From: Gammaproteobacteria bacterium
GTDB lineage: Bacteria > Pseudomonadota > Gammaproteobacteria > Eutrophobiales > Eutrophobiaceae
Direction: 5' to 3'
DNA: 64,000 bases
NCBI GenBank assembly: GCA_965116495.1
Contig: OZ220696.1
Location: 128,001-192,000 of the forward strand
The position numbers and the translations under genes are program-made. The notes below the pieces were generated by a model. It was not told the DNA's origin and did not search any database. It saw only the letters and a list, made by a program, of their open reading frames with translations. Positions 46,354 through 62,185 of the stretch are shown here, one piece after another; the first letter of the stretch is position 1, and each line of letters starts with the position of its first letter.

Positions 46354-46539
46354 GGTCAGGCGTCAGCGCCCATAATTTTCAGTGTGGTATAATCGGCAGT
46401 CATTCCCGGGGAGTCGGAACCATAGGGTTTTAATCTGATGAAACTTGAAATTGTCAGGCCAACTGCCAGTTCGCGGGTCAGCGAGATTCCACTCAGAATC
46501 GCAGTAGGCGTCTTGACATTTGTGCCAATTCCGCAAAGA

Positions 46540-48108
46540 TTGATTAAACATCCTCGCCGGCGCAGCGTCCTGAAATTACTATTTCCCGTCATCACCTGCT
46601 GCATCATCTCCGCCTGTGCCCCGAAGATGAAGCTGGTCAATCTGGTCCCCGAGGCTGACGAAACGGTTGCGGAGTTACCCGACGAGTTTAGCGGGAGCGG
46701 GGACCCCGGTTCCTATGAGCCCCTGGAGTGGTGGAAATCGTTCGCAGACCCGGTTCTTGACAGGATAATCGAAGCGGCGCTGGAGTCGAACTTCGACCTG
46801 GCCGAAGCGGTGGCCCGGGTCGAACAGGCCAGGGCGCGGGAACGCATCGTCAAGGCCCCGGCATTTCCGCTTATCCAACCTTCGCTGGATATTACCGGCA
46901 CGGATATACCCACTAATGCAGGTATCGCCGCGCAACTGGATGAAGTCGGGCTGGGCTCCGACGTATACAGTGACTTTGGCATCGAGTTGCCCGACCGGCT
47001 TGACTTGACTACCTATACGTTAAACGCTGAATTCTCTTATGAACTCGATTTCTGGGGACGCAACCGCAACGATACGCTGGCCGCCGGGGCGCAGCGGTCG
47101 GCTTCCGAGGCGGATTACCTGACCGCCCGCATGGGGGTGCTGTCCGAAACCGTGCGCACCTACCTGGAGATTGTCGACCTGCGCCGGCAACACAAGCTGG
47201 TGGATGAAAACGTGGAAATATTCCGGCAGCGCGAGTCACTGGCCGGGTTTCGTTATGGCCGCGGCCGCATCGACACGCTCGCGCTTTACGCTGCGCGCCA
47301 GAACCTGCGCAATGCAGAGGCGGAGTTGCCGCAGATCGAAGCGCTGCTGGCGGATGCTGAAGGCCGGCTCTGGGTAATGCTGGGCGGTTACCGCTCGGAC
47401 CTGGAGGAATTACTGCCCGATACCCCGACGCCCGCCACTGCGCTCGAACCGATTCCGGCCGGCATTCCGGCAGATCTCCTGGCACAGCGGCCGGACGTCA
47501 GTGCGGCAAGGCAGCGCATGGAGGCGGCCCGGTACACGGTCGGCGCCCGGCGCGCGGACATGTTTCCGAGCCTGTCCCTATACGGTTCCATCGGGCTGCA
47601 GAGTACCGAGGGAGGAGAGTGGTTCGACCCGGATCAATGGTTTCGCAACCTGAGCTTCAACCTGCTGGGCCCGGTATTCCAGGGTTCACGGTTGCGCAGC
47701 AACGTCGACCTTGCCGAGGCCAGGTTGAATGAGGCGGCTGCCGCTTACGGACGCAGTGTCGTCACCGCGGTCAAGGAGGTTGAGGCTGCCCTGGCGCGGC
47801 TTGAGGCCAGCCGTCGCCGCCATTCCCTGCTGGCATCCCTCGCCGATGAGGCGCAGGCCGAAAATGCGTTGCAGGAACAGCGCTATGTCTCCGGTGTGGG
47901 TAACTATGAGGATTACCTGACCGCATCGCAAAATCTCCTGGGAGCGCAATCCGGACTGGCAGCAGCTGAGCGTGACCTGGGTTATGCGCGTCTCGCACTG
48001 CACCGTGCGTTGGGAGGCGCGTGGACCGTCCAGGACAGGGAAGCAATCAATCACAGTAACGCAACCTCTGCAGAGCAGGCGCGTTACCTGGCGAACTCCA
48101 CGGAGTAA
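46540..48108 (+). CDS. RND outer-membrane factor lipoprotein (TolC/NodT family)
   Basis: Lipobox IISAC, WWKSFADPVL, SYELDFWG, PADLLAQRPDV, ALHRALGGAW. Start uncertain (TTG 46540 or ATG 46438). Confidence 0.92.
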   Translation: MIKHPRRRSVLKLLFPVITCCIISACAPKMKLVNLVPEADETVAELPDEFSGSGDPGSYEPLEWWKSFADPVLDRIIEAALESNFDLAEAVARVEQARARERIVKAPAFPLIQPSLDITGTDIPTNAGIAAQLDEVGLGSDVYSDFGIELPDRLDLTTYTLNAEFSYELDFWGRNRNDTLAAGAQRSASEADYLTARMGVLSETVRTYLEIVDLRRQHKLVDENVEIFRQRESLAGFRYGRGRIDTLALYAARQNLRNAEAELPQIEALLADAEGRLWVMLGGYRSDLEELLPDTPTPATALEPIPAGIPADLLAQRPDVSAARQRMEAARYTVGARRADMFPSLSLYGSIGLQSTEGGEWFDPDQWFRNLSFNLLGPVFQGSRLRSNVDLAEARLNEAAAAYGRSVVTAVKEVEAALARLEASRRRHSLLASLADEAQAENALQEQRYVSGVGNYEDYLTASQNLLGAQSGLAAAERDLGYARLALHRALGGAWTVQDREAINHSNATSAEQARYLANSTE

Positions 48109-48114
48109 AACGAC

Positions 48115-49320
48115 ATGTCCCGCATTTCCAGTTTCCTCGTTGTTGTAATCATTATCGGCGCTTCCGTGGCATTGGCGTCTTTCCTGGTTTCAAGGGCGCC
48201 GGAGCCGGAGCGCGTCGAATCTCCCCCGCAAATCCCTTACGCGCAGACCGATACGGTAATTGCCGGGTTTGGCGCCATACCCGTGTACGGAGCGGGAACG
48301 GTCAGACCAGGTGCAGAGGTCGATATCGCGCCGCAAATCGGCGGCAGGATTGTCTGGGTTGATGCGGGCTTCCAGAGTGGCGGACGGATACAGGCGGGGC
48401 AGACGGTTTTCCGTATAGAAGAAGCGGACTACCTGTACCGGGTGCAGGAAGCAGAGGCCAATCTCGCTGCCCGCCGCGTGGCCTTGCTCGAGGAACAGGA
48501 ACAGGCGGCTATCGCCCGCGCCGAGTATGAACGTTACTCCAACCGGCAGGGGGACACGGCTGTACAGGCCGGCGTCAGTCCTCTTACGCTCAGGGAACCC
48601 CAACTGGAAGCGGCACGGGCCGAATTGAAACGTGCTGAGGCTCTGCTCGCAGACGCCAGGCTGGCGCTGGCCAGGACCCGGGTAACTGCGCCCTTCGACG
48701 GTCATGTGCGTGAAGAGTCGGTGGATGTGGGACAGATCGTGGGCGCCGGCCAGACCGTGGGACGGTTTTTTGCATCCGCTGCCGTGGAAGTAGTCGTACC
48801 CTTGTCCGATACCGAGGCTGCCTTGATCCCGGGCTTGTGGGAACTTAAGGCGGGCGACGGGGAGCAAGGTGTTCGGGCGCTCGTGGTCGCCCGCTACGGC
48901 GAAGGAAAATATGCCTGGAAAGGCTACGTGGACCGGGGCGAAACTTCCGTTGACGAACTGACGCGCACTATCGACGTGGTCGTGCGCGTGCCTGACCCGT
49001 TCAGTGCAGGAATTCCGCTGGGCCCATCCGCTGTTGCCGGCGCCGGTCCGCCCTTGCTGCTCGGTGAGTTCGTGGAGGTGGAGATCACGGGGCTTGCGCC
49101 GGAGGTTTATTTCCGTGTGCCGAGAGCAGCCCTGCAACCGGGCAATGAAGTCTGGGTCGTGAACCCCGGCGGCAGGGTGGGCATCGTTCCGGTTCAGGTG
49201 CTGCAGCGCGCCGATGACGAGGTATTCGTGACCGGCGACCTGGACCGCGGCCAGGCCGTGATTACCGGTGGAATACAGTATGCCACGGAAGGTATGCGCG
49301 TGCGTACGGGAACTGATTAG
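48115..49320 (+). CDS. RND periplasmic adaptor (membrane fusion protein)
   Basis: N-terminal transmembrane helix, IAPQIGGRI, TRVTAPFDG, VPRAAL. Confidence 0.92.
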   Translation: MSRISSFLVVVIIIGASVALASFLVSRAPEPERVESPPQIPYAQTDTVIAGFGAIPVYGAGTVRPGAEVDIAPQIGGRIVWVDAGFQSGGRIQAGQTVFRIEEADYLYRVQEAEANLAARRVALLEEQEQAAIARAEYERYSNRQGDTAVQAGVSPLTLREPQLEAARAELKRAEALLADARLALARTRVTAPFDGHVREESVDVGQIVGAGQTVGRFFASAAVEVVVPLSDTEAALIPGLWELKAGDGEQGVRALVVARYGEGKYAWKGYVDRGETSVDELTRTIDVVVRVPDPFSAGIPLGPSAVAGAGPPLLLGEFVEVEITGLAPEVYFRVPRAALQPGNEVWVVNPGGRVGIVPVQVLQRADDEVFVTGDLDRGQAVITGGIQYATEGMRVRTGTD

Positions 49321-49325
49321 TCACT

Positions 49326-52300
49326 ATGAGTTCAATCGATCCCGGTCACGGAGAACGCCCCGGCCCCATCGCCTACATGGCGGGCAACGGCATCAGCGCC
49401 AACCTGCTGATGTTTGCCATCATCGCCGCAGGACTTGTGTCGTTGACCGGACTCGAGCGGGAAGCATGGCCCACCGTGCCGTTTAACCATGTCGAGGTCT
49501 CCATGCCCTACCCCGGTGCAACCCCGGAGGAAGTGGAAGAGTCCATCGTCGTCAAGATCGAGGATGAGGTCAGCGGCCTGGAAGATGTCAAGGCGGTGAA
49601 GTCTGTGGCGGCCCCCGGGATGGCTTCGGTCAGGATCGAAGTGAAATCGGGCGCGGATATGAGCGATGCCATGGACGAGATCGAATCCGCGGTCAGCCGC
49701 GTCCAGACCTTTCCCGCCGGCGCGGAACGCGCCGAGTTCAGGGAAATGACCAATCGCCAGAGCATGATCCGCCTGATTGTCTATGGCGACGTCCCGGAAC
49801 GTTCGCTGAAGGAACTGGCGTACCGCATAGAAGATGAACTGGCTTCGCTGCCCGCCGTGTCCCTGGTCGACACCAGCGGCATGCGTGAATACGAAATTTC
49901 CATCGAGGTGCCGCTGCATCGCCTGCGCGCGCTCGGACTCACACTTGACGATATTGCAGATACGGTCCGGCGCAGTTCCCTGGACCTGTCCGCGGGAAGT
50001 ATTGATACCCGGGAATCCCAGGTACGCGTGCGCACCCTGGGTCAGCGCTACGATCAGCAGGATTTTGAGGATATCGTAGTACTCAGCCGTAGCGACGGAA
50101 CGGTGGTGCGCCTGGGTGATATCGCCGGTGTGCGGGACGGCTTCCAGGACCTCGACCTGATTATCCGGCACCAGGATAAACCCGGGGTTTTCGTGGAGGT
50201 ATCCCGGGCCGAGGGCGAGCAGGTGATGAAGGTGGCGACGGCGGTACAGGAGCACATTACCAACGCGGTGATCCCGTCCCTTCCCGATGGCGTCGACATC
50301 ACCATCTGGAATGATGAATCCCAGAGCTATTCGGAGCGCGTCGACCTGCTGGTCAAGAACGGCCTCCTGGGCCTGATGCTGGTGTTGATCGCACTGGCCC
50401 TGTTCCTGGAGATCCGGCTCGCTATCTGGGTCGCCGTGGGTCTTGCCATTTCCGGTATCGGCGCCCTGGCCGTCATGCTGGTCATGGACCTGGCGATCAA
50501 CACCATATCGCTGTTCTCATTCGTGCTTGCCATCGGGATCATCGTCGATGATGCAATAGTTGTAGCGGAGCATATCCATTATGAGCGCAAGCGGGGCACG
50601 CCCGGTGTCGTTGCGGCCATCCGCGGGGCGCGCCGCATCAAGATGCCGTTGGCCTTCGCGGTGCTTACTTCAATCGCTGCATTCATCCCCCTGCTGTTCA
50701 TTCCCGGCGGCATCGGCGAAATATGGTCCGCCTTGCCGATAATCATCATCGCCATGCTGTCGATTTCCCTGGTGGAATCGCTGTTTGTCCTGCCGAACCA
50801 CCTGTCTCACTTGCACGGCCCGGATTGGGCGCCGACCAGCGCGGTCGACCGCTTCTTTGCCGGGACCCAGGGCTTCGTCGATCGCGCTCTGAACAGGTTC
50901 CTTAACGGTCCCCTGGAACGGGCGCTGCGCTTTGCAACGAACCAGCCGGGGATAACCATCGCCGGCGCCATCGGGTTGTTCATCCTCAGCGTGTCCCTGG
51001 TGCCGGCAGGTATCGTGGCCACGACTTTTGCCGACGTGGTGGAGGGCGACTTCGTGACGGCTAACCTGGAAATGCCCGACGGTACCACTGCGCAGCGGAC
51101 CCACGAGGTGGCGCGGGAACTGCAGGATGCCGGAGAGCGGGTCATTGAACGTCTGGACAGGACCCGGCCTGAAGGCGCGCCTTCCCTGTTGTCCGGCGTT
51201 ATCGTAACCGTGGGGCAACGCCCCCGTGTCGAGGGCGGCGGACTCGACCCGGCGCCGAAGTTGAATCCGGAGGCCAATATCGCCACCATCGAGTTCAAGT
51301 TGCTGAGCGCGCAGCAGCGGCAGATCACTACCCGGCAGGTGGTGCAGGCATGGCGGGAAGAGGTGGGTATTCTGCCCTACGTACGCGGCATTGCCTTCAG
51401 CGGGCAAGTCATTGACCTCGGCAACCCCATCGAGGCCGTGCTGTCGCACCCGGACCCGGAACGCTTGGCGCAAATCGCCGACTCGGTAGTAAACGGCCTG
51501 CGCGGCATTGCGGGGGTGTTCGACGTGCGCTCGGACCACACGCCCGGTATCAAGGAGATCCAGCTCGAATTACGGCCGGAAGCGCGTACGCTGGGGCTCA
51601 CGCTTGAAGACATGGCCGGACAGACGCGCGCTGCTTTCTTCGGCGCCGAAGCGCTGCGGGTGCAGCGGGGCAGGGAGGAAGTCAAGGTCTATGTGCGCCT
51701 GCCCGGGGATGAACGCGATGCCATTACCGATATCGAGGGATATCTTATCCGTACGCCGAACGGCGCCGAAATCCCCTTGAGCCAGGTGGCCGTAGTAAAA
51801 TCAGGCACTTCACCCCCGGTGGTGCGGCGCCGGGACGGGCAGCGCGTCGTCATTGTCACGGGGGATGTGAATAAGACCGTGATCTCCGGCGGAGAGGCGA
51901 ACAGTATCCTGGCCGATTCGATCCTGGCAGGGCTGTCCGCCAAAAACCCGGAACTGACCTACCGGTTCGGGGGGGAACAGCAGCAACAACTCGATTCACT
52001 GGGCGCCCTGTACCGGGGTTTTGTGATTGCAATGCTGATGATTTTTGCGCTGCTGGCCATTCCCCTGCGCTCCTATACCAAGCCGTTCATCATCATGGCC
52101 GTCGTCCCGTTTGGGCTCATCGGCGCCATCCTCGGTCACTGGATCCTGGGTGTCGCGCTCAGCGCGGCTTCTTTCATGGGTATCTTCGGCCTCAGCGGCG
52201 TGGTAGTGAACGATTCCCTGGTCATGATCGATTTCATCGACCAGAAACTCAGGGAGGGAGTACCCGTGAGGACTGCGATCATCAACGGCGCCAAGGGGCG

Positions 52301-52547
52301 TTTTCGTCCCATATTGCTGACCTCGGTGACTACCTTTCTCGGTTTCACGCCGCTTATTCTCGAGACCTCAATCCAGGCACAGTTCCTTGTTCCTTTTGCG
52401 GCTTCGCTCGGGTTCGGGATCATGATTACCACTGCCATACTCATGGTGCTCATACCCGCGCTGTATACCCTCTATTTACGCCTGATTCCCCCGCGTACGG
52501 AACGCGCCGTTCCCGCTGCTGAATTACAGACCCGGACTGTGGGTTAG
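49326..52547 (+). CDS. RND inner-membrane permease (AcrB/AcrD/AcrF family)
   Basis: YPGATPEEVE, GIIVDDAIVVAE, GVVVNDSLVMID, RFRPILLTSVTT. Confidence 0.95.
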   Translation: MSSIDPGHGERPGPIAYMAGNGISANLLMFAIIAAGLVSLTGLEREAWPTVPFNHVEVSMPYPGATPEEVEESIVVKIEDEVSGLEDVKAVKSVAAPGMASVRIEVKSGADMSDAMDEIESAVSRVQTFPAGAERAEFREMTNRQSMIRLIVYGDVPERSLKELAYRIEDELASLPAVSLVDTSGMREYEISIEVPLHRLRALGLTLDDIADTVRRSSLDLSAGSIDTRESQVRVRTLGQRYDQQDFEDIVVLSRSDGTVVRLGDIAGVRDGFQDLDLIIRHQDKPGVFVEVSRAEGEQVMKVATAVQEHITNAVIPSLPDGVDITIWNDESQSYSERVDLLVKNGLLGLMLVLIALALFLEIRLAIWVAVGLAISGIGALAVMLVMDLAINTISLFSFVLAIGIIVDDAIVVAEHIHYERKRGTPGVVAAIRGARRIKMPLAFAVLTSIAAFIPLLFIPGGIGEIWSALPIIIIAMLSISLVESLFVLPNHLSHLHGPDWAPTSAVDRFFAGTQGFVDRALNRFLNGPLERALRFATNQPGITIAGAIGLFILSVSLVPAGIVATTFADVVEGDFVTANLEMPDGTTAQRTHEVARELQDAGERVIERLDRTRPEGAPSLLSGVIVTVGQRPRVEGGGLDPAPKLNPEANIATIEFKLLSAQQRQITTRQVVQAWREEVGILPYVRGIAFSGQVIDLGNPIEAVLSHPDPERLAQIADSVVNGLRGIAGVFDVRSDHTPGIKEIQLELRPEARTLGLTLEDMAGQTRAAFFGAEALRVQRGREEVKVYVRLPGDERDAITDIEGYLIRTPNGAEIPLSQVAVVKSGTSPPVVRRRDGQRVVIVTGDVNKTVISGGEANSILADSILAGLSAKNPELTYRFGGEQQQQLDSLGALYRGFVIAMLMIFALLAIPLRSYTKPFIIMAVVPFGLIGAILGHWILGVALSAASFMGIFGLSGVVVNDSLVMIDFIDQKLREGVPVRTAIINGAKGRFRPILLTSVTTFLGFTPLILETSIQAQFLVPFAASLGFGIMITTAILMVLIPALYTLYLRLIPPRTERAVPAAELQTRTVG

Positions 52548-52555
52548 CGGCGGAC

Positions 52556-54586
52556 CTACGCAGCCGGCTCGACAGGGTGCCGGTAACCGGTCACCCGGAA
52601 CTTGAACCTCTTGTCAGGACTGGTCTTGGGTAGCGGACTCAGTCTCAGTTTATAGTTCTTCGGCACCATTTCCAGTTCCAGGTGGCGGGCGAGCAGCAGC
52701 ACGTTGGCCGCCAATTGCAATTCGGTCCAGCGCGCCCCGCCACAGACGTGAGTGCCGACGCCGAATGGGGCATAGGCATTGGCCCCGGCGTGTTTATGCT
52801 CTTCACGGGGTTCCTTGTAGCGTGTGATATCGAACTTCTCAGGGTCCGGAAAGTGTTTTTCCATATAATGCATTGCCGGAAATACGACCATGATGTTGGA
52901 GTAGGAGGGTATGTGGTAACCCTCTACCTCAAAGGCGTTCATGGCAGTGCGCAAGTGCATCGGTATGATCGGATACAACCTCAACACCTCCATGATAAAA
53001 CGGTGGGTTACATCGATATTGCGCAGGGTGAAATCCGCGCCCGCCGGATCGCCATCGGCGAACAACGCATCCGCCTCGGCAACAATCTGCTCCCGGCAAT
53101 CCGGGTTGTTGAGCAGTTCGTAGATCGAAAAAGCCATTGCGCTGCCGGTGTAATGGCCGGCGATAATCGGTGCGATGAATGCGAAGCCCAGGTCCGTCTC
53201 CGGCAGGAACGCGGGGTCGGAATGGTGCAGTTCCATCAGGTCGTCCACCAGGTCGCGCCGTTTGCCTTCTCGTTGCGCGGGTGTGTGCGTGGCGTGGATC
53301 AGGTCATACAATTCGAGAACACGATTGCGGTAACGCTTCATCCTTGGCGTGTGCAGGGTGAGCTTCGGCAGAATGCGCATCACGTGGACCAGTAACGCTC
53401 GGTATTCGAACTTGAGCAGGTCGTCGAGGATTTCGGAGGCATCGATGCTCACGCTGAGCTGGGCAACCTGGTCGCCGATCATCCGCTGGCAGGCCATCTC
53501 GCCCGTTACCACCTGGCCGATTCCCCATTGTCCGTATGAACGCCGGGCAAGCGCTATCAGTTCATCCATCCGGTCTTCAACGACTTTACGGGAATTTCCT
53601 GCACGCATCGCCTTGCGCATGCGAAAATGTTCGGCTCCGCCCATGCTGGCGATGGAGCGGGCCGTTCCCCACTCGGATAGAAATTCCTCCAGGTAATCCC
53701 GGGTGCGCAGGAAATTACGGCCGTTTCTGCCGACCCACTGGTTCATCTCGGCGCTGGCCAGTACTACCATTTCCCGGCCCGGGATCTTGATTTTGAAAAC
53801 CGGCCCCAACTCCCCGGCTTTTTCCGCGATGAACTTGGGTATGTTTTTTTCCCAGAAGGCCCTCGATGAGAACATGTCCCGGATTCCGACTACCGGCAGG
53901 GTGCGGCCTGTGACCGCGCGCATGCTTTCCGGAGGCCGATAAGAACTGCGTACTGCATGTCCGATGGTCCTGCCGATCAGGTCCATGCCGCTGAACAGTT
54001 CGATGCGCTCCTCGGCGAGTTCAAACTCCTCGGGTTCCAGCATCGCGCGGAAACCGCCGCAGTTGTGCGTCAGGCCGATGATGCACATGTCGCGGGGATC
54101 GGGAATCTCGTCATCAAACAGGACGCGTATGATCCGGCCCTTGATTTCTTCACCGGTCCTGCCGTGCACCATGGGGTAGCGGCCGGAACGGGACACCTTG
54201 CCGGACAGGGTCCAGAAACCGCCGGCATCGGCTTCAAAAATGTTTTTTTGTACCAGGCGGTTAATTGCCGTTTCGTTAATCTTGTCGGCGTGCCTGGCGA
54301 TGCGTTCAACCCAGTGCTGTGGAGATTGCGTCTTTTCCTCCCGGGCGATTTCCTCAAGCGCGGGGTCCAACAACTCATCCTCGGTGGGAGTTGCATCGAC
54401 CAGGGTAAGCGTCTCCAAATCGGTGTCGATACGGTTATCCAGGGCGAGGTCCATGAGGACGCTACCGGCGAGCGCGCAGGACATTTTCCACTCCGGGATA
54501 GGAATGAAATAGCCGGAATCGTCACTGTGCAACAACAGGAGCAGTTCTTCAGCAAATCTCATGTCCGTTTTCTCTGATCGGGACAT
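52556..54586 (-). CDS. Fusion protein: N-terminal GPP34 (GOLPH3/Vps74-like) domain plus C-terminal cytochrome P450
   Basis: N-terminal ~210 aa: FAEELLLLL.D..G, ALAGSVLMDLALDNRI, DATPTEDELLDPAL, RLVQKNI, RYP, PDPRD. C-terminal: AGHYT I-helix, EVLR (ExxR), PEKFD, FGVGTHVCGG heme Cys. Single ORF with no internal stop. Confidence 0.85.
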   Translation of the reverse strand: MSRSEKTDMRFAEELLLLLHSDDSGYFIPIPEWKMSCALAGSVLMDLALDNRIDTDLETLTLVDATPTEDELLDPALEEIAREEKTQSPQHWVERIARHADKINETAINRLVQKNIFEADAGGFWTLSGKVSRSGRYPMVHGRTGEEIKGRIIRVLFDDEIPDPRDMCIIGLTHNCGGFRAMLEPEEFELAEERIELFSGMDLIGRTIGHAVRSSYRPPESMRAVTGRTLPVVGIRDMFSSRAFWEKNIPKFIAEKAGELGPVFKIKIPGREMVVLASAEMNQWVGRNGRNFLRTRDYLEEFLSEWGTARSIASMGGAEHFRMRKAMRAGNSRKVVEDRMDELIALARRSYGQWGIGQVVTGEMACQRMIGDQVAQLSVSIDASEILDDLLKFEYRALLVHVMRILPKLTLHTPRMKRYRNRVLELYDLIHATHTPAQREGKRRDLVDDLMELHHSDPAFLPETDLGFAFIAPIIAGHYTGSAMAFSIYELLNNPDCREQIVAEADALFADGDPAGADFTLRNIDVTHRFIMEVLRLYPIIPMHLRTAMNAFEVEGYHIPSYSNIMVVFPAMHYMEKHFPDPEKFDITRYKEPREEHKHAGANAYAPFGVGTHVCGGARWTELQLAANVLLLARHLELEMVPKNYKLRLSPLPKTSPDKRFKFRVTGYRHPVEPAA

Positions 54587-54630: not shown

Positions 54631-54795
54631 TTAGCCTGTGACGGAACTCAACCGGAGATCGTCCCCGCCCGTCTCCGGATAAATTTCAGGGTAGAACTGG
54701 CGGCAATAGCGGCGGGTGGATTTTCGGTCAGAAATGAAATACCACCCCTCGGGGAACGGGGGCAGTTTATCTGTGCTGTCCATCAAGTTGATCAT
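54631..54795 (-). pseudogene. Internally deleted Rieske oxygenase remnant (KshA/Neverland-like N- and C-termini joined)
   Basis: Manual translation MINLMDSTDKLPPFPEGWYFISDRKSTRRYCRQFYPEIYPETGGDDLRLSSVTG*; no CxH/CxxH Rieske ligands remain. Confidence 0.65.
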
Positions 54796-54847: not shown

Positions 54848-54960
54848 TGTATTATATAACCCGTTAATCTCCAGTGGTATTTGTTCAGGCAATTATCTCC
54901 CAGGATTGAAGATTCCGGCGTTTGGGGGGAATTTGACTATGGTCCTTGCGCCATTACGGC

Positions 54961-56151
54961 TCACATCGGTGATGCCTTGTTGCATATATATTGTCCGATA
55001 GGAATGGCAGACGTAGCTGCTGGAGAAGGTGCATTACAAACATGCAAGCTGCGCGAACTTTCAGCAAAAAGGAAATCATGTACCAGAGTGCCATCATTCA
55101 TTACAGCCTGAGCTCGAACACCGGCAGGATAGGGTAGCAGGTCATTTGATTTTAGTTGAGGACAATATTTTTGTACTTGTCGTAAATAGCCCGCTTTCCA
55201 AATTGAATTCCTGAATTCGTTCAGGCCTGATATCCAATTCCTGGATGCCAGTTTCCAAAATCCAGGGAATGAAAATGTATCTTTTATATCCTGAAGGTCA
55301 AAATTATATTTTCCATATCCTTCTCGTTCCCAGCCTAACACTGCGTTTGGCCCAACGACGACACCTCCATTAACAATGCGGGTGAGGTGGACTCCAAGGA
55401 AGGGTAGTGTCGGATCGGGTATCGGGTATATTAAACGCTCAATAAGATCATTTTTGTCAGAGGATAATCGATAATACTCACCTCGAAATGGAATAATCCT
55501 GAAATTTATACTCAATCCATGAAGAGTGGCAAGTCGATCCGCATTAAGACCCGCACAACAAATCAGAAAACCCGTCTTAAGTACATCTGAATCAGTGGTC
55601 ACCGTCACGAATTGATCGTTTTCTTCAAGTCCCAACACTCGCGCTGAGAGTCGCATTACCCCACCCAGGGCGCTGAATTGCTCTGCCATACGATTGCATA
55701 TCTGTTTATAATCGACAATGCCGGTTACAGGAACATGTAGCGCGCCAAGCCCGGTTATATTTGGTTCCATTTTCTGGAGGTCCTCTGCAGATACTCTTGT
55801 TGCTGCAATTCCATTTATTGCACAACGCTCGTAGAGAGAGTCCATACGGATTAATTCCTGCTCATCAGTCGCGACCAGCAATTTTCCACATTGTTCGAAA
55901 TCAATATTATTTTCACGACAAAAATCTGTCGTGGCGCTCACACCCTGTCTACAGAAATCAGCCTTGAGACTGCCGGGCTCATAGTAGATGCCGGCATGGA
56001 TTACGCCGCTATTGTGGCCGGTTTGGTGAGCCGCAAGGCGGTCTTCTTTTTCCAGGACGAGAATTTTTTTCCCTGGGTGACGGCTTTGTAATTGCCAGGC
56101 AGTCGATATGCCGATGATTCCGCCGCCAACTATAATATAGTCGTATTGCAT
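54961..56151 (-). CDS. lhgO: L-2-hydroxyglutarate oxidase family FAD oxidoreductase
   Basis: IVGGGIIG, HQTGHNSGVIHAGIYY, PFRGEY, PFLGVHLT, AGVRAQA, NAPSPAATS. Confidence 0.9.
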   Translation of the reverse strand: MQYDYIIVGGGIIGISTAWQLQSRHPGKKILVLEKEDRLAAHQTGHNSGVIHAGIYYEPGSLKADFCRQGVSATTDFCRENNIDFEQCGKLLVATDEQELIRMDSLYERCAINGIAATRVSAEDLQKMEPNITGLGALHVPVTGIVDYKQICNRMAEQFSALGGVMRLSARVLGLEENDQFVTVTTDSDVLKTGFLICCAGLNADRLATLHGLSINFRIIPFRGEYYRLSSDKNDLIERLIYPIPDPTLPFLGVHLTRIVNGGVVVGPNAVLGWEREGYGKYNFDLQDIKDTFSFPGFWKLASRNWISGLNEFRNSIWKAGYLRQVQKYCPQLKSNDLLPYPAGVRAQAVMNDGTLVHDFLFAESSRSLHVCNAPSPAATSAIPIGQYICNKASPM

Positions 56152-56199
56152 GCTAGGTTATTCACAGGAATTTACGTCGACGCTCTGTTTGATCTTCTA

Positions 56200-57450
56200 T
56201 TACTTCTTATCCCATGCCGGAAAAGGGCCCAACTTCAAACATAAAAAAATTGCAATTAATAACATGCCCGTGACGGCGAAAATACCCAGGTTATAATTTC
56301 CGAAAGTATCAAAAATAAATCCCAGGGCCAGGGGTCCCATGCTGGTTCCCACCATGAAAGCTGCGAACAGGTAGCCAAAAATTTCCCCCAGGTGTTTGAG
56401 GCCAAAATATCGGCTGACCAGGTAGGCAAGTAAATCTGTTTCGGCACCAACACCCAGACCAAAGAGAAAGGCGGACATGTAGAGTAGCAGCACGTGTGAA
56501 CTGAAAAACAGGATTACAATACCAAGCGTGGACAATAAGAAAAAAATGGCCGCCACATAAGGGCCAAAAAACCGATCGACAAGAAATCCACAACCAATAC
56601 GACCGACAATTATTGAAAAACCAACTACGGAAAACAAACGTGCAGCTAACAAGGAAGAAAAGCCCTTATCCTGCAGATAGGGTATGAAATGCGTAACAAT
56701 ACTGTGCAGCGCAAATGCAATGAGTAAAAAAATAACAATCAACAGCCAAAAGGTCGAAGTGGATGCTGCTTCCGGAACTGATGACCCTGAGTGGATGTCG
56801 ACCCTGGCGGAGGTCCCATGTTCGTTTGATTTTGCGCCATCGACCACCAGACCCATAGATTCAGGCGTCTCACGATGGACAAGACCGACAAGCAAAAACG
56901 TAACAGCAAATGAAATACAGGCAAGAGCAGGATACGTCAGGCGCCAACCGATTGTATTAACCAGGTACTGACTGAGCAGGGGAATGGTGGCGGCGCCCAC
57001 ACCGGTTCCGGACATGGCAATTCCCAATGTCAGCCCCCTTTGTTTGTTAAACCATGATGAAACTGTGCGGACATAACAAGCGACAACTGGTGAAGTGAAT
57101 ATACCAATGAGTGCGAATATAAGATAAAAGTACCAGATATTTGAGCTTAAAAAATATTGCGACGCGAAAATGAAAGAGAAGGCGCCTATGGTAGACAGTA
57201 AAATCGGGCGCACACCGATTCGATCAATTAACCTGCCTGCATAAGGTGTGCACACCGCAATCATCAGCGTTCCAATGGTGATTGCACCTGATACCTGTGC
57301 ACGGGACCAGTCAAATTCGCCAGTCAATACGCGCATGAAAACACCCAGGGTATAAAATGCGATAACAGCAGGGCTGACAGTCACCCCAATGCAACTCACA
57401 ACGACGATCCACCAGCCATAGAAGATTTTCGGCCCCTGCATCTCGCTCAT
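56200..57450 (-). CDS. MFS transporter (monocarboxylate/OFA-like)
   Basis: FYGWWIV, GRLIDRIG motif A, WFNKQRGLTLG; about 12 transmembrane helices. Confidence 0.92.
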   Translation of the reverse strand: MSEMQGPKIFYGWWIVVVSCIGVTVSPAVIAFYTLGVFMRVLTGEFDWSRAQVSGAITIGTLMIAVCTPYAGRLIDRIGVRPILLSTIGAFSFIFASQYFLSSNIWYFYLIFALIGIFTSPVVACYVRTVSSWFNKQRGLTLGIAMSGTGVGAATIPLLSQYLVNTIGWRLTYPALACISFAVTFLLVGLVHRETPESMGLVVDGAKSNEHGTSARVDIHSGSSVPEAASTSTFWLLIVIFLLIAFALHSIVTHFIPYLQDKGFSSLLAARLFSVVGFSIIVGRIGCGFLVDRFFGPYVAAIFFLLSTLGIVILFFSSHVLLLYMSAFLFGLGVGAETDLLAYLVSRYFGLKHLGEIFGYLFAAFMVGTSMGPLALGFIFDTFGNYNLGIFAVTGMLLIAIFLCLKLGPFPAWDKK

Positions 57451-57763
57451 CTGCGTGACTCCTTATCCAAAAAAGGATGAGTATACTTGATGGCGGGGTC
57501 CATCACTCCGATAACTAATGCAGAATCTCCCTTTATTGCCTGGTTGAGAACCAGTTGCCGTGCATAATACGCAGACTGGCGGATATTCCTGTTTAATTGA
57601 AATCCTGTCTATTTAGTATAAAATGTTTTAAATGAAATGATAGACAATATTATCGAATGAAAATATTTTATAAAGCAGTTCAATAGCCCTGTAAACCTCC
57701 ATGGAGTCTGGCTGGCATATTGAAGATAATGGTTCATAAATAAATAACAACCGGAGATATATC

Positions 57764-58147
57764 ATGAGTAGCAGAACACCCGAACAGGATGCGATTGAGG
57801 CATGTATTCAAAAATACACGGATGGAATCGCACAGCACGACACCGACCTGGTTGCTGAGGCTTTCCATCCACAGGCTATAATGAGTAGTCACAGGGGAGA
57901 TGATTTCTCGATAGTGCCCGCAGCTGAAACTATCGTTAATTACATGAAATCCATCCCGCCCATTTCAGAATCGAGCCCTGACTTTGCCGGGCGGGTAATA
58001 TCAGTTGACCAGAAAGAAACGATGGCGACTGCAATAATAGGTGAGGATGCACTGGAAGGGTTAAATTTTATTACTTATTTTCATTTACACAAGGTGGACG
58101 GCACCTGGTTAATTACCAGTAAGGCGACGTATGGAGAACCAATGTAA
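57764..58147 (+). CDS. NTF2/SnoaL-like (lumazine-binding-type) protein
   Basis: IQKYTDG..AFHPQA..TYFHLHKVDGTWLITSK; GGAG RBS upstream. Confidence 0.8.
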   Translation: MSSRTPEQDAIEACIQKYTDGIAQHDTDLVAEAFHPQAIMSSHRGDDFSIVPAAETIVNYMKSIPPISESSPDFAGRVISVDQKETMATAIIGEDALEGLNFITYFHLHKVDGTWLITSKATYGEPM

Positions 58148-58246
58148 TATTTGGGTAAAGTTCAGAAATTATGACCCCGATGCCAAAGCCCTGGCGCCGC
58201 AGCTTAAGGGACTTGACCCGCTTAATTTTTTTGGAGAGAGATATTA

Positions 58247-58879
58247 ATGGCAATTTTAAGATTATCAAACGGTGAAGTGTATGTAACCTATAAGGACATT
58301 AATAAGATTATAGCCCCTGCAGGGATGACAGTTGGTCGATTCCCGTACCCGGAAGCCCTTGAGGCCAAGGTGGCGGAAATGTCCAAGCCACTGACAAAGG
58401 AATCCTTGGATTTAGTGTTCGGCGAGATGGCATCGAGTGTAGAAGGGATACTGAAGGATGCGAACTATAGTTATGCTGCTTGTCGCGGCGCTGTCTATGT
58501 TCCACCGGAGACGAAAGGCGGTAAATGCGCTTTCTCCATGGCCTTGGCCGGCATGGAGGAACCGATGAATGCTGAGATGAATGAATCCGATACGAGTGAC
58601 TATAAACTCCCACACGTATTGCGTACAGATAATTGGCATTTCGCATTTGCAAGTGCCTTCGTAAAAGGAATGCAACTGGAGGGTGATTTGCAGGCCGTGA
58701 TATATGTGACCGCCGGAGAGTGGCAGCGCCTGGATTCCAATATACTTACCTGGGTTATTTTCACATTCGGTGAACCGGTTGTGGGACTTAGCTACTTTGC
58801 AGATGAACCAAACGCTCAAGGAAAATGGGAAACAGATGTGGCACCTGATCACGTTATCCTGGATACAATGAAGTTTTAG
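58247..58879 (+). CDS. Divergent acireductone-dioxygenase-like cupin
   Basis: MAILRLSNG..DI..IAP N-terminus and V.AGE....W....YF C-terminus resemble ARD-family proteins; metal ligands are degenerate. Confidence 0.55.
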   Translation: MAILRLSNGEVYVTYKDINKIIAPAGMTVGRFPYPEALEAKVAEMSKPLTKESLDLVFGEMASSVEGILKDANYSYAACRGAVYVPPETKGGKCAFSMALAGMEEPMNAEMNESDTSDYKLPHVLRTDNWHFAFASAFVKGMQLEGDLQAVIYVTAGEWQRLDSNILTWVIFTFGEPVVGLSYFADEPNAQGKWETDVAPDHVILDTMKF

Positions 58880-59079
58880 CAATTATTAAATGCGCAACCA
58901 ACTGTATGCTACTGAATTGACCATGATTGCCAATAAACCCGGCCGGCGTTTCTCAGGTGTACAGGGATTTTGCTTTCGCAGGCCCACAGCACATTGCAGA
59001 TTTTATTTCCAGGCCTCGCACCATTGGAGTACACATCGGCTATACCTACTAGAAATTGGCGCTTGCAGGAGAGAACGAT

Positions 59080-60222
59080 ATGACAGACAAGCCTATCGCC
59101 AAGCTGTTCACTGACGAGGAAATTCAGGGTATCCGTGAAGGCATTGACGGTGTCAAACGCGCCATACCCTCACGCTTTTACCACGATGAGGCGATCTATC
59201 ACTACGAAGTTGAACACCTGTTGAGGAAAAACTGGTTATGCGTGGGTCGCTGGGATCGGGTCGAACATCCGGGTGATTACTTCACCGTGAGGATGTGGCA
59301 AGAGTCGATTGTCATCGTTCGGGACAATGAAGGGGCTTTGCATGCCCTGGTTAATGTCTGCCAACATCGCTACACACAGGTGGTAGGAGATGGATGCGGC
59401 AACAGCAAGTTTTTTACCTGCCCTTATCATAGCTGGACCTATAACCTGGATGGTAGTTTACGCGGTGTTGCACTGGCTGAACTGCCAGGTTTTGATAAAA
59501 ATAAGTGCAGTATGCCAAAACTCAGGATTGAACAATGGCAGGGGTTTATTTTTATCAATTTTGACAGTGAGGCTAAACCCCTGGCGCCCCAAGTGGAAGC
59601 GGTCAACCCTCACTTTGAGGAATATAAGGTCTCCGAGTACAGGGAAAGAAACGCCGTCGACTACGAGGCCAACTGGAACTGGAAATTCTCGTTTGAAACC
59701 GGTTATGAAGGTTATCATCATTGTGGTCTTCACCGTGACCGCATTAATAATATCGTGCCGGGTAACAATACCAGGCCGCTGGATTTTGGCAAAGCTTGTG
59801 GATCCTACACGATGTGGATGAAAGACGATCCGGCCTTGAAGGAAAAAATGGAACAGCGCGAAAAAGACGGTTACCTGGGGCGGGATCCGAGCGCAAAATT
59901 CATTGGCATATATCCGAACCTGATTATATTCCTTAATTCTAAACAGGTAACGTATATCATCACCCAGCATCAAAAGGTTGATTTTAGTTATGCATCAACC
60001 CGACAGGCCTTTTCGCCAAAGATTTTAGCCCTGCCAAAAGCGGAAAAGGCCATTGCGGAACAGGATCAAAGCATGAGAGATACACAGGATGAAGACACAT
60101 ATGGATGTACCATGCTGCAAAAGGGAGTTAGTTCCCGGACAAACAGTACAGGGGTCATCCACCCACTGGAGCAACAACTAAATCACTATCATAACTGGTA
60201 CCTGGATCAACTTAACCAGTAA
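59080..60222 (+). CDS. Rieske non-heme iron oxygenase alpha subunit (CntA/choline monooxygenase-like)
   Basis: NVCQHR...CPYHSW [2Fe-2S] ligands, NWK...EGYHHCGLH and DED mononuclear Fe ligands. Confidence 0.92.
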   Translation: MTDKPIAKLFTDEEIQGIREGIDGVKRAIPSRFYHDEAIYHYEVEHLLRKNWLCVGRWDRVEHPGDYFTVRMWQESIVIVRDNEGALHALVNVCQHRYTQVVGDGCGNSKFFTCPYHSWTYNLDGSLRGVALAELPGFDKNKCSMPKLRIEQWQGFIFINFDSEAKPLAPQVEAVNPHFEEYKVSEYRERNAVDYEANWNWKFSFETGYEGYHHCGLHRDRINNIVPGNNTRPLDFGKACGSYTMWMKDDPALKEKMEQREKDGYLGRDPSAKFIGIYPNLIIFLNSKQVTYIITQHQKVDFSYASTRQAFSPKILALPKAEKAIAEQDQSMRDTQDEDTYGCTMLQKGVSSRTNSTGVIHPLEQQLNHYHNWYLDQLNQ

Positions 60223-60248
60223 TTCCACCTGTTAAACTCTAACAAATC

Positions 60249-61019
60249 ATGCAAGTAAAAAATCTAGCTGCAATTGTTACCGGTGGTGGTACCGGGATCG
60301 GTTTTGCGACGGCGAAGTTACTCAGTGATGAAGGAGCCAGGGTAACGATTCTCGGACGTAGGAAAGATGTCATTGAAAAAGCCGGGCAAGAGATCGGCGC
60401 GCTGGGAATATCCTGTGACATCAGTGATGAAAAGAGTACCGAAGCTGCGTTTAATCAGGCGACAGAGGCCCATGGGCCTGTACGGATCCTGGTAAATAGC
60501 GCCGCAGTAAGCCCGCAAAATCGACCCGTTGTCGATGATGCCGGCCCGGTTCCGCTGAACTGGTTTACTGACCTTGTCGCGATTAACCTTTCCGGTATTT
60601 TCAATACAACCCGTTTGGCAGCAGCTGAAATGCGCGACGCAAATGAGCTGGATGATAAGTCGCGAGGCGTCATTATTAATATCTCTTCGGTTTCCGGGCA
60701 CGATGGACCGACGGATAATATCGCTTACGTGGCTTCCAAGGGCGGCATAAACAGCATGACCCTGGCACTGGCTCGTGAATTTGGTCAATTTGCTGTGCGC
60801 GTTGTGACAATATCTCCCGGCCCTGTTGATACACCGTTGTCGAGAGAGAACGTACCACAGGAAATGTGGGATGCGCTTCCGCATGTTATGCCTTTTCCGA
60901 AAAGAGCGGCTGATCCCTCCGAGGTAGCACGAACGGTACTTCATGTCTGTGAACAAACCTATCTTAATGGTGAAATCATCCGCTTTGATGGTGGCTATCG
61001 TGTGCCGTTTATGAATTGA
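60249..61019 (+). CDS. Short-chain dehydrogenase/reductase (HSD10/3-hydroxyacyl-CoA dehydrogenase type 2-like)
   Basis: TGGGTGIG, RGVIINISS, YVASKGG, YLNGEIIRFDGG. Confidence 0.9.
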   Translation: MQVKNLAAIVTGGGTGIGFATAKLLSDEGARVTILGRRKDVIEKAGQEIGALGISCDISDEKSTEAAFNQATEAHGPVRILVNSAAVSPQNRPVVDDAGPVPLNWFTDLVAINLSGIFNTTRLAAAEMRDANELDDKSRGVIINISSVSGHDGPTDNIAYVASKGGINSMTLALAREFGQFAVRVVTISPGPVDTPLSRENVPQEMWDALPHVMPFPKRAADPSEVARTVLHVCEQTYLNGEIIRFDGGYRVPFMN

Positions 61020-61072
61020 GGCTTTGATGATGGGTATGATGTTGGGAAAAAGAATAGAGCAGGCATACTGAT

Positions 61073-62185
61073 ATGATAGATACATCACCGCTCGCTGTGC
61101 GGGATGACCTCAAATCGGCCTTGACCCAGGCCTGGTCGGAAGTGGCACAGACCGGCGCCTGGCTGAGCGGCGAACAACGTCTTGCAATCGCAAACGAAGC
61201 CCGCAACGCATGGCAATGCAAACTCTGCCAACGGCGCAAGGAAGCCCTGTCGCCCTATACCATCGAAGGCGATCATGATCACCTTGGTGCGCTCCCCGAT
61301 GCCTGGATCGAGGCGGTACACCGGATAGTTACCGACTCCGGCCGCATCACTGAGAGTTGGTACGATGCAACCATCGCTGCCGGTATCATTGAAGATGAGT
61401 TCATCGAACTGCTGAGTCTCGTTACAATTGTCACCGGGGCGGACACCTTCATGCGTGCTATCGGGCTCCCACCACTGGTGTTGCCCGCAACAGGGGAACA
61501 AGGCACACCGCCACGAAGGCGACCGGGCGGCGCAAAGACAGGGCCGGGATGGGCGCCAACTATTGCTCCGGAAGACGCCGGCCCCGAACTTGGCGGTTTT
61601 TATGAGACAGGCCCCGCCGCCTATATTCGACGTGCGCTGACCCTGGTTCCCGGCGAAGCAAACCGTTTCTGGCCGCTTTTGAACCAGCTTTACCTGGGTA
61701 ATCCTATGAGAGTTGAGCTCGAGGGTGTCGAGCGCGCAATCTCGCGGGCGCAGATGGAATTCATTGCGACCCGCACCTCGGCCTATCTCGACTGTTTTTA
61801 CTGAACTGCCAGTCATGCAATGCGGCTCAGTTTGAGTGGCGAACATACCGGCGACGAGTACGCGCTTATAGATGCGGTCGGTAAAGGCACAGGGGACAGC
61901 GGCCTGCCCCGGGGAGAGCTTCTCAACGACTTTGTCGAGGCTGTCTGCGCAGGTGATGGCGCGCGCACGGCAGCAGTCCGGCAAAAAATCATCGAAGAGA
62001 TGGGTGAGGCGGCGATAATAGATGCCGCGGCGGTCATCGCAGCATTTAACTGTTACCCGCGCGTTGCCGATGCTACGGGCATCCCCCTGGAGGAAGCCAA
62101 GGCGGCTGCAACCGAAGCCATGCGCGCCGAACTGGGTCTGGATGAGCTTGATGCTCGCAAAAAACCTGGTGAGAAGTGGTCCTGA
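61073..62185 (+). CDS. AhpD/CMD-like protein, probable selenoprotein (Sec at TGA 61802-61804; 370 aa)
   Basis: ORFs 61073-61804 and 61820-62185 are in the same frame. Read-through gives ISRAQMEFIATRTSAYLDCFY-U-TASHAMRL, the AhpD CxxC-xxx-H motif. A hairpin follows the TGA. Confidence 0.8.
61808..61852 (+). promoter_or_regulatory. Putative bacterial SECIS element
   Basis: Lower stem gccagtcatg/cataccggc, upper stem gcggctca/tgagtggc, apical loop GUU with the G 26 nt after the UGA. Confidence 0.65.

Follow-up and report, generated by a model that had tools for sequence, protein, structure and literature searches.

The gene at positions 52556–54586 on the minus strand of the 64,000-nucleotide stretch analysed here (the window; contig OZ220696.1 of a gammaproteobacterium of the family Eutrophobiaceae) encodes a protein containing an N-terminal GPP34 domain and a C-terminal cytochrome P450 domain. 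In our judgement, the balance tips slightly towards this protein being a cytoplasmic, membrane-docked P450 that tailors a sterol and feeds an exporting pump of the resistance-nodulation-division (RND) type, the genes of which lie next to it. We infer the substrate from the gene context, the membrane binding from a hydrophobic hairpin in the GPP34 domain, and the export of the product from the pump. We also infer that the window genome, referred to below as G000, is that of a sponge symbiont; all 26 related GTDB records are metagenome-assembled genomes.

The identical two-domain architecture, in the same order, was defined as GPP34_L by Ferreira et al. (2025, Microbiome 13:4; PMC11706023; papers are cited throughout for their searchable text), where it accounts for 656 of 663 long GPP34 proteins. 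GPP34_L was described there as monophyletic, as found in sponge symbionts only and as expressed in one sponge metatranscriptome, and was proposed, without biochemistry, to be a secreted effector binding phosphatidylinositol 4-phosphate (PI4P). The window protein is a member of this published, biochemically uncharacterised kind. The sequence-only reading of the window had stated that no characterised enzyme with this architecture was known, which holds in the searchable literature, although the architecture itself had already been published. Since it has been catalogued, the fusion as such has little discovery value. The words sterol, steroid, CYP51, efflux, RND, MFS, signal peptide and AlphaFold are absent from the searched main text of PMC11706023, and relative to that text the linkage to the pump, the sterol context, the lost PI4P pocket and the clade with a tyrosine in the I-helix are new. 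No link of a GPP34-P450 fusion to sterols was found in the literature, the search covering open papers and leaving the PDF supplement of PMC11706023 (Fig. S11, flanking genes) unsearched.

Architecture and conservation of the fusion protein

The gene and the parts of its product are located as follows.

52556–54586, minus strand: GPP34-P450 fusion open reading frame, 676 residues, stop-free
53978–54553, minus strand: GPP34 (GOLPH3/Vps74-fold) domain, residues 12–203, from Pfam, profile and VIA matches
54206–54229, minus strand: DAGGFWTL hairpin, residues 120–127, aligned with the membrane-inserting residues 194–197 of GOLPH3
53867–53941, minus strand: inter-domain linker, residues 216–240, with a conserved SYRPP start and low model confidence at 220–226
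52649–53866, minus strand: cytochrome P450 domain, residues 241–646, from Pfam, PDB sequence matches and Foldseek
53141–53161, minus strand: I-helix AGHYTGS, residues 476–482, with invariant Tyr479, acid-free and one residue shorter than in AGLDT relatives
52979–52990, minus strand: K-helix ExxR (E533, R536), present in 119 of 119 close homologues and invariant in 150 alignment rows
52736–52765, minus strand: heme loop FGVGTHVCGG with the ligand Cys615 (150 of 150 rows)

The single uninterrupted frame of 676 residues noted in the sequence-only reading was confirmed and lies on the minus strand; the plus-strand frame of the same interval is interrupted by stops. Nothing is aligned with residues 1–8 in at least 112 of 119 close homologues (the best 120 of 825 matches minus the window's own protein). 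Met9 (position 54562) is probably the true start, giving 668 residues, because a methionine stands there in 107 of the 119. Pfam detected GPP34 (PF05719; 116.3 bits against a cut-off of 29.1, E 2.4e-33) and, after it in the same chain, p450 (PF00067; 135.7 bits against 22.8, E 2.7e-39). Only these two domains were given by Pfam, with no fused flavin or Fe-S reductase domain of the BM3 type, and a scan of the protein against NCBIfam gave nothing above any cut-off. The motifs from which the two domains had first been recognised were likewise recovered, namely EVLR (533–536), PEKFD and FGVGTHVCGG (608–617) for the P450 and AEELLLL, LAG, RYP and PDPRD for GPP34. The window protein reads PTEDELLD where PTGD is found in all 119 close homologues.

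The fusion is not a sequencing artefact, because all 119 other homologues listed carry the same architecture: PF05719 and PF00067 occur in one chain in each of the best 120 of 825 matches, at 64–100% identity. More distant forms were added by a search of 50%-identity representatives, in which 42 of the best 150 matches carry a GPP34 match together with the heme motif (a script count that includes a few fragments). Contigs assembled from public runs of three studies span the inter-domain linker with no gap there, the two best possibly being the window's own source; no RNA run was among those listed for this stretch. In six of six pairwise comparisons, dN/dS was 0.12–0.20 for the GPP34 part and 0.13–0.17 for the P450 part, and both domains are thus under purifying selection; these ratios also speak against an artefact. 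Neither the lack of a GPP34 match nor the two separate genes that had been contemplated earlier were seen.

Some variation around this architecture was observed. Against loci L008 and L012, the synonymous divergence of the window gene is about 0.2 over the GPP34 part (53942–54562) and 0.8 over the P450 part, a pattern suggestive of intragenic recombination. A second GPP34-P450 paralogue lies beside the first as an intact divergent pair in L025 (3789–8013) and in broken or frameshifted form in L011 (9612–10859) and L027 (7708–9171). Tandem forms exist as well, in the proteins P0125 and P0171 (GPP34-GPP34-P450 of 872 residues and GPP34-GPP34 of 444 residues). Elsewhere in G000 (C1:1361442-1361801; L002), a 224-codon frame gives a weak second GPP34 match of 23.7 bits, below the Pfam cut-off.

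The two domains and what they may bind

The kinship of the N-terminal domain with GOLPH3/Vps74, previously read from motifs, was supported by comparison of folds. When the whole protein was compared with the PDB by phmmer, the best 60 matches were all P450s, and the link to GOLPH3 required the domain alone. That domain matched GOLPH3 (3kn1) by profile with an E value of 1.6e-9, and its model matched GOLPH3/Vps74 with a VIA Z score of 17.4, the next, unrelated match scoring 4.0. Structural alignment with 3kn1, 9qpq and 2zih gave a root-mean-square deviation of 2.8–3.0 Å over 192–193 residues at 22–23% identity, and Foldseek gave TM scores of 0.64–0.74. As modelled, the domain is a true GOLPH3/Vps74 fold. 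Winged-helix matches of the same model (Z 3–4) fall below the trust level of the tool and were not taken as a sign of DNA binding. Like GOLPH3/Vps74, the window domain has hydrophobic residues at the position of the hairpin; unlike them, it lacks the PI4P-pocket residues, has a loop before the pocket helix that is about 10 residues shorter, and is fused to an enzyme.

GOLPH3 contacts PI4P through W81, R90, R171 and R174 (PMC2806290, PMC13408441), and its R90L variant is deficient in PI4P binding (PMC13408441). None of these four residues is kept in the window protein, where P31, A40, D101 and N104 are aligned with them (by profile alignment, with no superposition). An invariant Trp33 lies two residues away from the position of W81. 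Arginine at the position of R90 was found in none of the 150 rows of the alignment, which comprises 106 close homologues and 44 distant members. At the position of R174 it was found in none of the 106 close homologues, which have S, N, G or T there; 21 of the 44 distant rows retain it, and the loss of the pocket is therefore not safely generalised to the whole family.

The sequence-only reading had proposed that GPP34 docks the P450 on a membrane or lipid surface. Docking of the PI4P type, which this implied, was not borne out, as all four residues are replaced; docking by another route, the hydrophobic hairpin, may be considered. GOLPH3 residues 194–197 insert in the membrane (PMC13408441). 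The residues aligned with them form an FWxL motif (F124-W125-x-L127), modelled by AlphaFold as a short hairpin and conserved in close homologues at F124 (116/119), W125 (103/119) and L127 (113/119). No transmembrane stretch was found in the fusion protein, the maximal 19-residue hydropathy being 1.32. The GPP34 domain is acidic, with an isoelectric point of 4.7 and a net charge of −17 (median of 119 rows), and the P450 domain is basic (isoelectric point 8.3). The AlphaFold model of the whole protein, built from the 150-row alignment, has a pLDDT of 91.9 and a pTM of 0.88, with residues 220–226 below 50. From the pTM across the disordered linker, the sole measure for this packing, the two domains are predicted to dock in a fixed arrangement.

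GPP34 occurs in other settings. A stand-alone GPP34 protein of Streptomyces affects wall-deficient cells (PMC12402492), and GPP34 therefore has roles inside free-living bacteria too. Fusion to an ABC ATPase has been reported from five genomes (PMC11706023). In genome G023, GPP34 is fused twice to an MFS transporter (L074:7606-9513 and L078:8461-10326), an arrangement not among the four architectures given in the searchable text of PMC11706023, and a short GPP34 also adjoins another MFS gene.

Is the protein a secreted effector? In the published proposal, the GPP34 domain attaches to PI4P of the host and keeps phagosomes from maturing, the P450 being its cargo. The close match to the GOLPH3 fold, the R174-type arginine of some distant members, and the confinement of the family to sponge symbionts with expression in a sponge metatranscriptome (PMC11706023) agree with this model. 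The four pocket residues, however, are exchanged, one of them at the very position where R90L leaves GOLPH3 deficient in PI4P binding (PMC13408441). In the model, the N-terminus of the window protein is the first core helix of the GPP34 domain rather than a leader. As markers of type III, type VI and VirB-type IV secretion, the FHIPEP, VipB and VirB4-type (CagE_TrbE_VirB) families gave no match in the 99.5% complete genome, while the controls matched, type I and II systems not being searched; a search for Dot/Icm matched nothing anywhere and is uninformative. P450s depend on cytoplasmic electron donors, which also speaks against secretion. The PI4P-binding effector idea thus fits this clade poorly, and we regard it as very improbable.

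The P450 part is, by all sequence signs, an intact heme-thiolate protein, because C615, E533, R536, H320 and R546 do not vary across the 150 alignment rows. The canonical acid-alcohol pair of the I-helix is absent, AGHYTGS containing no acid. Position 479 is Tyr in 119 of 119 close homologues and position 480 is Thr in 70 and Leu in 44 of them; the register of Tyr479 is ambiguous, as it falls on the acid position by HMMER/BLAST against CYP51 and on the Thr position by MAFFT. Most relatives outside the Tyr clade have AG[L/I]DT. In a tree of 84 P450 domains, the Tyr forms make up one 20-row clade with an SH-aLRT support of 100 (SH-aLRT was the only support measure, three fusion rows and 13 of 37 stand-alone rows were omitted, and four CYP51 rows were set as outgroup). 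This clade contains the tree's copies linked to a sterol cluster or a sterol methyltransferase (L068, L072 and L076). The Tyr was also seen in L079, which lies outside it.

The closest solved relatives of the P450 part by sequence are bacterial CYP51s (E 4.6e-30). Bacterial CYP51s (7tef, 1x8v, 6mcw) have a similar heme loop with a His two residues before the Cys, whereas their I-helix reads AGQHT or AGHHT and that of the window protein reads AGHYT with a one-residue deletion. The four CYP51 rows are separated by a long branch in the P450 tree, where they were set as outgroup. Membership of a CYP family requires about 40% identity. The P450 part is not a CYP51 orthologue, because it is only 26% identical (over 248 residues) to the CYP51 that G000 has elsewhere and because Foldseek places P450 BM3 first, ahead of CYP51. 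An altered oxygen-activation motif in the I-helix is known from the CYP710A sterol C-22 desaturases (PMC9368853). The likeness to the window P450 is by analogy only and not a match, the CYP710A SRS4 consensus given in that paper being absent from the window I-helix.

The pump and the steroid-type neighbours

The neighbours of the fusion gene that bear on its proposed function are the following.

46438–48108, plus strand: RND outer-membrane channel (OEP/NodT type), by family match
48115–49320, plus strand: RND periplasmic adaptor (MFP), by family match
49326–52547, plus strand: AcrB-family RND inner-membrane transporter, convergent with the fusion gene across an 8-base gap
54631–54783, minus strand: remnant of a KshA-like steroid Rieske gene, 50 codons in frame, by tblastn and translation

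The remnant joins both ends of the 351-residue gene of relatives, its first 25 codons and its last 26, about 900 bases of the middle being deleted, and contigs from public runs match it without difference. Intact orthologues contain KshA_C and Rieske domains, and their best solved relatives are 3-ketosteroid 9-alpha-hydroxylases; none was found elsewhere in G000. A scan for ferredoxin Cys motifs found none within the window, the only match being an Fe-S oxidoreductase about 4–5 kb downstream in four related loci.

The spread of the architecture, which the sequence-only reading had left to be mapped, extends over at least three phyla. Twenty-five full-length loci were compared from Pseudomonadota, Acidobacteriota and Gemmatimonadota (L028, with no full-length match, was dropped). 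Neighbours were called by tblastn at 40% identity or more, with reference proteins taken from the same loci and some contigs short. Within 6 kb of the fusion, part of the RND trio was found in 21 loci, the KshA-like gene in 18, a TonB receptor in 8 and a sterol methyltransferase (SMT) in 4. Other recurring neighbours of steroid type are SQS, MMPL with a sterol-sensing domain, and whole sterol clusters.

Among 22 congeners, the fusion was found in 14, and the same 14 carry this AcrB subfamily, the other 8 matching neither. The KshA-like gene was found in seven, all among the 14. An oxidosqualene cyclase was present in 10 congeners, of which nine have the fusion, compared with five of the 12 without a cyclase. 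In a class-wide sample, GPP34 was matched in 6 of 400 genomes and the cyclase in 7 of 401 (a tally that takes in one unpublished genome), the overlap being G000 and genome G052.

G000 contains a complete sterol cluster of the order sdmB-sdmA-ERG24-CYP51-SE/OSC-SMT at C1:1.948-1.958 Mb (1948470-1957706; L033:5470-14706), which includes its own CYP51. This cluster encodes a squalene epoxidase-oxidosqualene cyclase fusion (SE/OSC) of 1150 residues, and a squalene-hopene-type cyclase lies at C1:4.17 Mb. In G052, a Tyr-clade copy of the fusion (42% identical) comes immediately after the same array, in the same orientation, and is followed by the pump, and in G405 (fusion 81% identical) and G406 (41%) the pump sits between the fusion and the sterol array. 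These three genomes were picked for the close coordinates of fusion and sterol cluster; in G000, G411, G420 and G422, the two lie on one contig but far apart. The array itself is known from symbionts of Ircinia and Aplysina (PMC9531527, PMC10070321). The clusters of steroid genes (CSGs) of Ircinia symbionts (PMC9531527) and the symbiont SMT clusters (PMC10070321) correspond to the array of G000, to which the three relatives add the fusion and the pump. In the searched text of these papers, no mention of a GPP34-P450 was found (no "Golgi" in PMC9531527, no "P450" in PMC10070321). The substrate guessed at earlier, sterol- or lipid-like, receives real support from this genomic context of pump, Rieske and sterol genes.

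Several further features of these loci were noted. In the window, a low-GC insert at 54880–61053 (0.46 against 0.55), absent from four relatives, contains genes for an L-2-hydroxyglutarate oxidase, an MFS transporter, a lumazine-binding-type protein, an unknown protein of 210 residues, a ring-hydroxylating Rieske alpha subunit and an SDR. At 61073–62185 on the plus strand, two adjoining open reading frames correspond to the N- and C-terminal parts of NF041238, an alkylhydroperoxidase-related (seleno)protein, and are divided identically in relatives. Three genomes share a FAD amine-oxidase-family gene (about 80% identical) that lies next to the fusion or to the sterol cluster (L018:6434-8017, L069:18218-19768 and L075:10919-12298) and possibly encodes another enzyme of the sterol pathway. 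In L073, L077 and L079, outside the Tyr clade, the fusion adjoins sulfotransferases, a protein containing an APS kinase, or an ecdysteroid-kinase-like (EcKL) gene, a hint that conjugation may follow the oxidation.

Proposed function and its alternatives

In the mechanism that we favour, the GPP34-P450 would oxidise a sterol inside the cell, either self-made or host-derived. GPP34 would pack on the P450 and hold the enzyme at the inner membrane without PI4P, its FWxL hairpin taking the part that an N-terminal membrane anchor plays in the sterol P450s of eukaryotes. Electrons would be supplied by a ferredoxin system encoded elsewhere. With a Tyr in place of the acid in the I-helix, the reaction may be a non-standard one, possibly substrate-assisted or desaturating, and would come late in tailoring, as a step other than 14-demethylation. 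The OEP-MFP-AcrB trio would then export the product. A precedent for a bacterial sterol conduit is BstABC of Methylococcus capsulatus, which has three parts and leads from the inner to the outer membrane (PMC10942540); the AcrB/MFP/OEP trio of the window is set beside BstABC by description only.

A number of observations weigh against a sterol-tailoring, membrane-docked enzyme. The 25 loci are kin and partly from the same genomes, and are not independent. Linkage of fusion and sterol cluster was seen in only three of the seven genomes with both on one contig, and in G000 they are 1.77 Mb apart. Five fusion-bearing congeners, four of them 97–98% complete, gave no cyclase match, and the fusion is therefore not a strict part of de novo sterol synthesis. 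The KshA-like gene upstream of the window fusion is deleted; the module therefore works or survives without it. A GPP34 domain this strongly acidic is poorly suited to simple binding of anionic bacterial lipids, and only 5 of 44 distant members have the hairpin Trp. The low identity to the genome's own CYP51 and the first place of BM3 in Foldseek point the same way.

Some of these observations are shared with a different explanation, in which the P450 oxidises a non-sterol metabolite of the host or community, such as a terpenoid or halogenated aromatic, the pump expels the product, and sterol genes hitch-hike in shared lipid-metabolism islands. RND trios are classically efflux pumps, within the genus no neighbour but the pump is always present, and a cyclase went unmatched in 5 of the 14 fusion-bearing congeners. 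The sulfotransferases or EcKL kinase beside distant AGLDT-type copies would also suit detoxification. Yet the variable neighbours are repeatedly of steroid type (KshA-like, SMT, SQS, MMPL and sterol clusters), in differing gene orders and phyla, and we consider detoxification unlikely.

The role of GPP34 could also differ while the sterol chemistry is the same. As a protein adaptor, its acidic surface would bind the cytoplasmic face of the RND transporter and hand over the product. The one-to-one co-inheritance of fusion and pump would be accounted for in this way, as would the GPP34-MFS fusions of G023 and the reported GPP34-ABC ATPase fusions (PMC11706023); the net charge of the domain recalls the client groove of GOLPH3, which is acidic and binds client tails (PMC13408441). 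However, the fusion and pump genes are in many cases convergent rather than co-transcribed, and the acidic surface may do no more than pack against the P450 domain, which is basic. An adaptor of this kind appears quite unlikely to us.

A wider and decidedly speculative extension of the favoured reading, to which we attach little credence, is that the Tyr-clade GPP34-P450s are a new sterol-tailoring class docking through GPP34 on a dedicated RND pump, possibly desaturases or C-C cleaving enzymes with a Tyr-based active site, by which symbionts finish sterols and export them to the sponge host. On this view, the GPP34 of bacteria would be an ancient adaptor, independent of phosphoinositides, that brings lipid enzymes to membrane transporters, a role from which the client binding of GOLPH3 arose.

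Overall, the sole published functional idea for these proteins, that of an effector binding PI4P, appears mistaken for this clade, and a testable alternative is offered by the gene context. If the sterol-tailoring reading is true, a bacterial domain of the GOLPH3 fold that is joined to an enzyme would gain its first function. The origin of the unusual demosponge sterols, from host or symbiont, matters for the debate over sponge sterane biomarkers (PMC10070321, PMC9531527), to which a symbiont P450 that tailors sterols and has an exporter of its own would, if confirmed, contribute a missing step.

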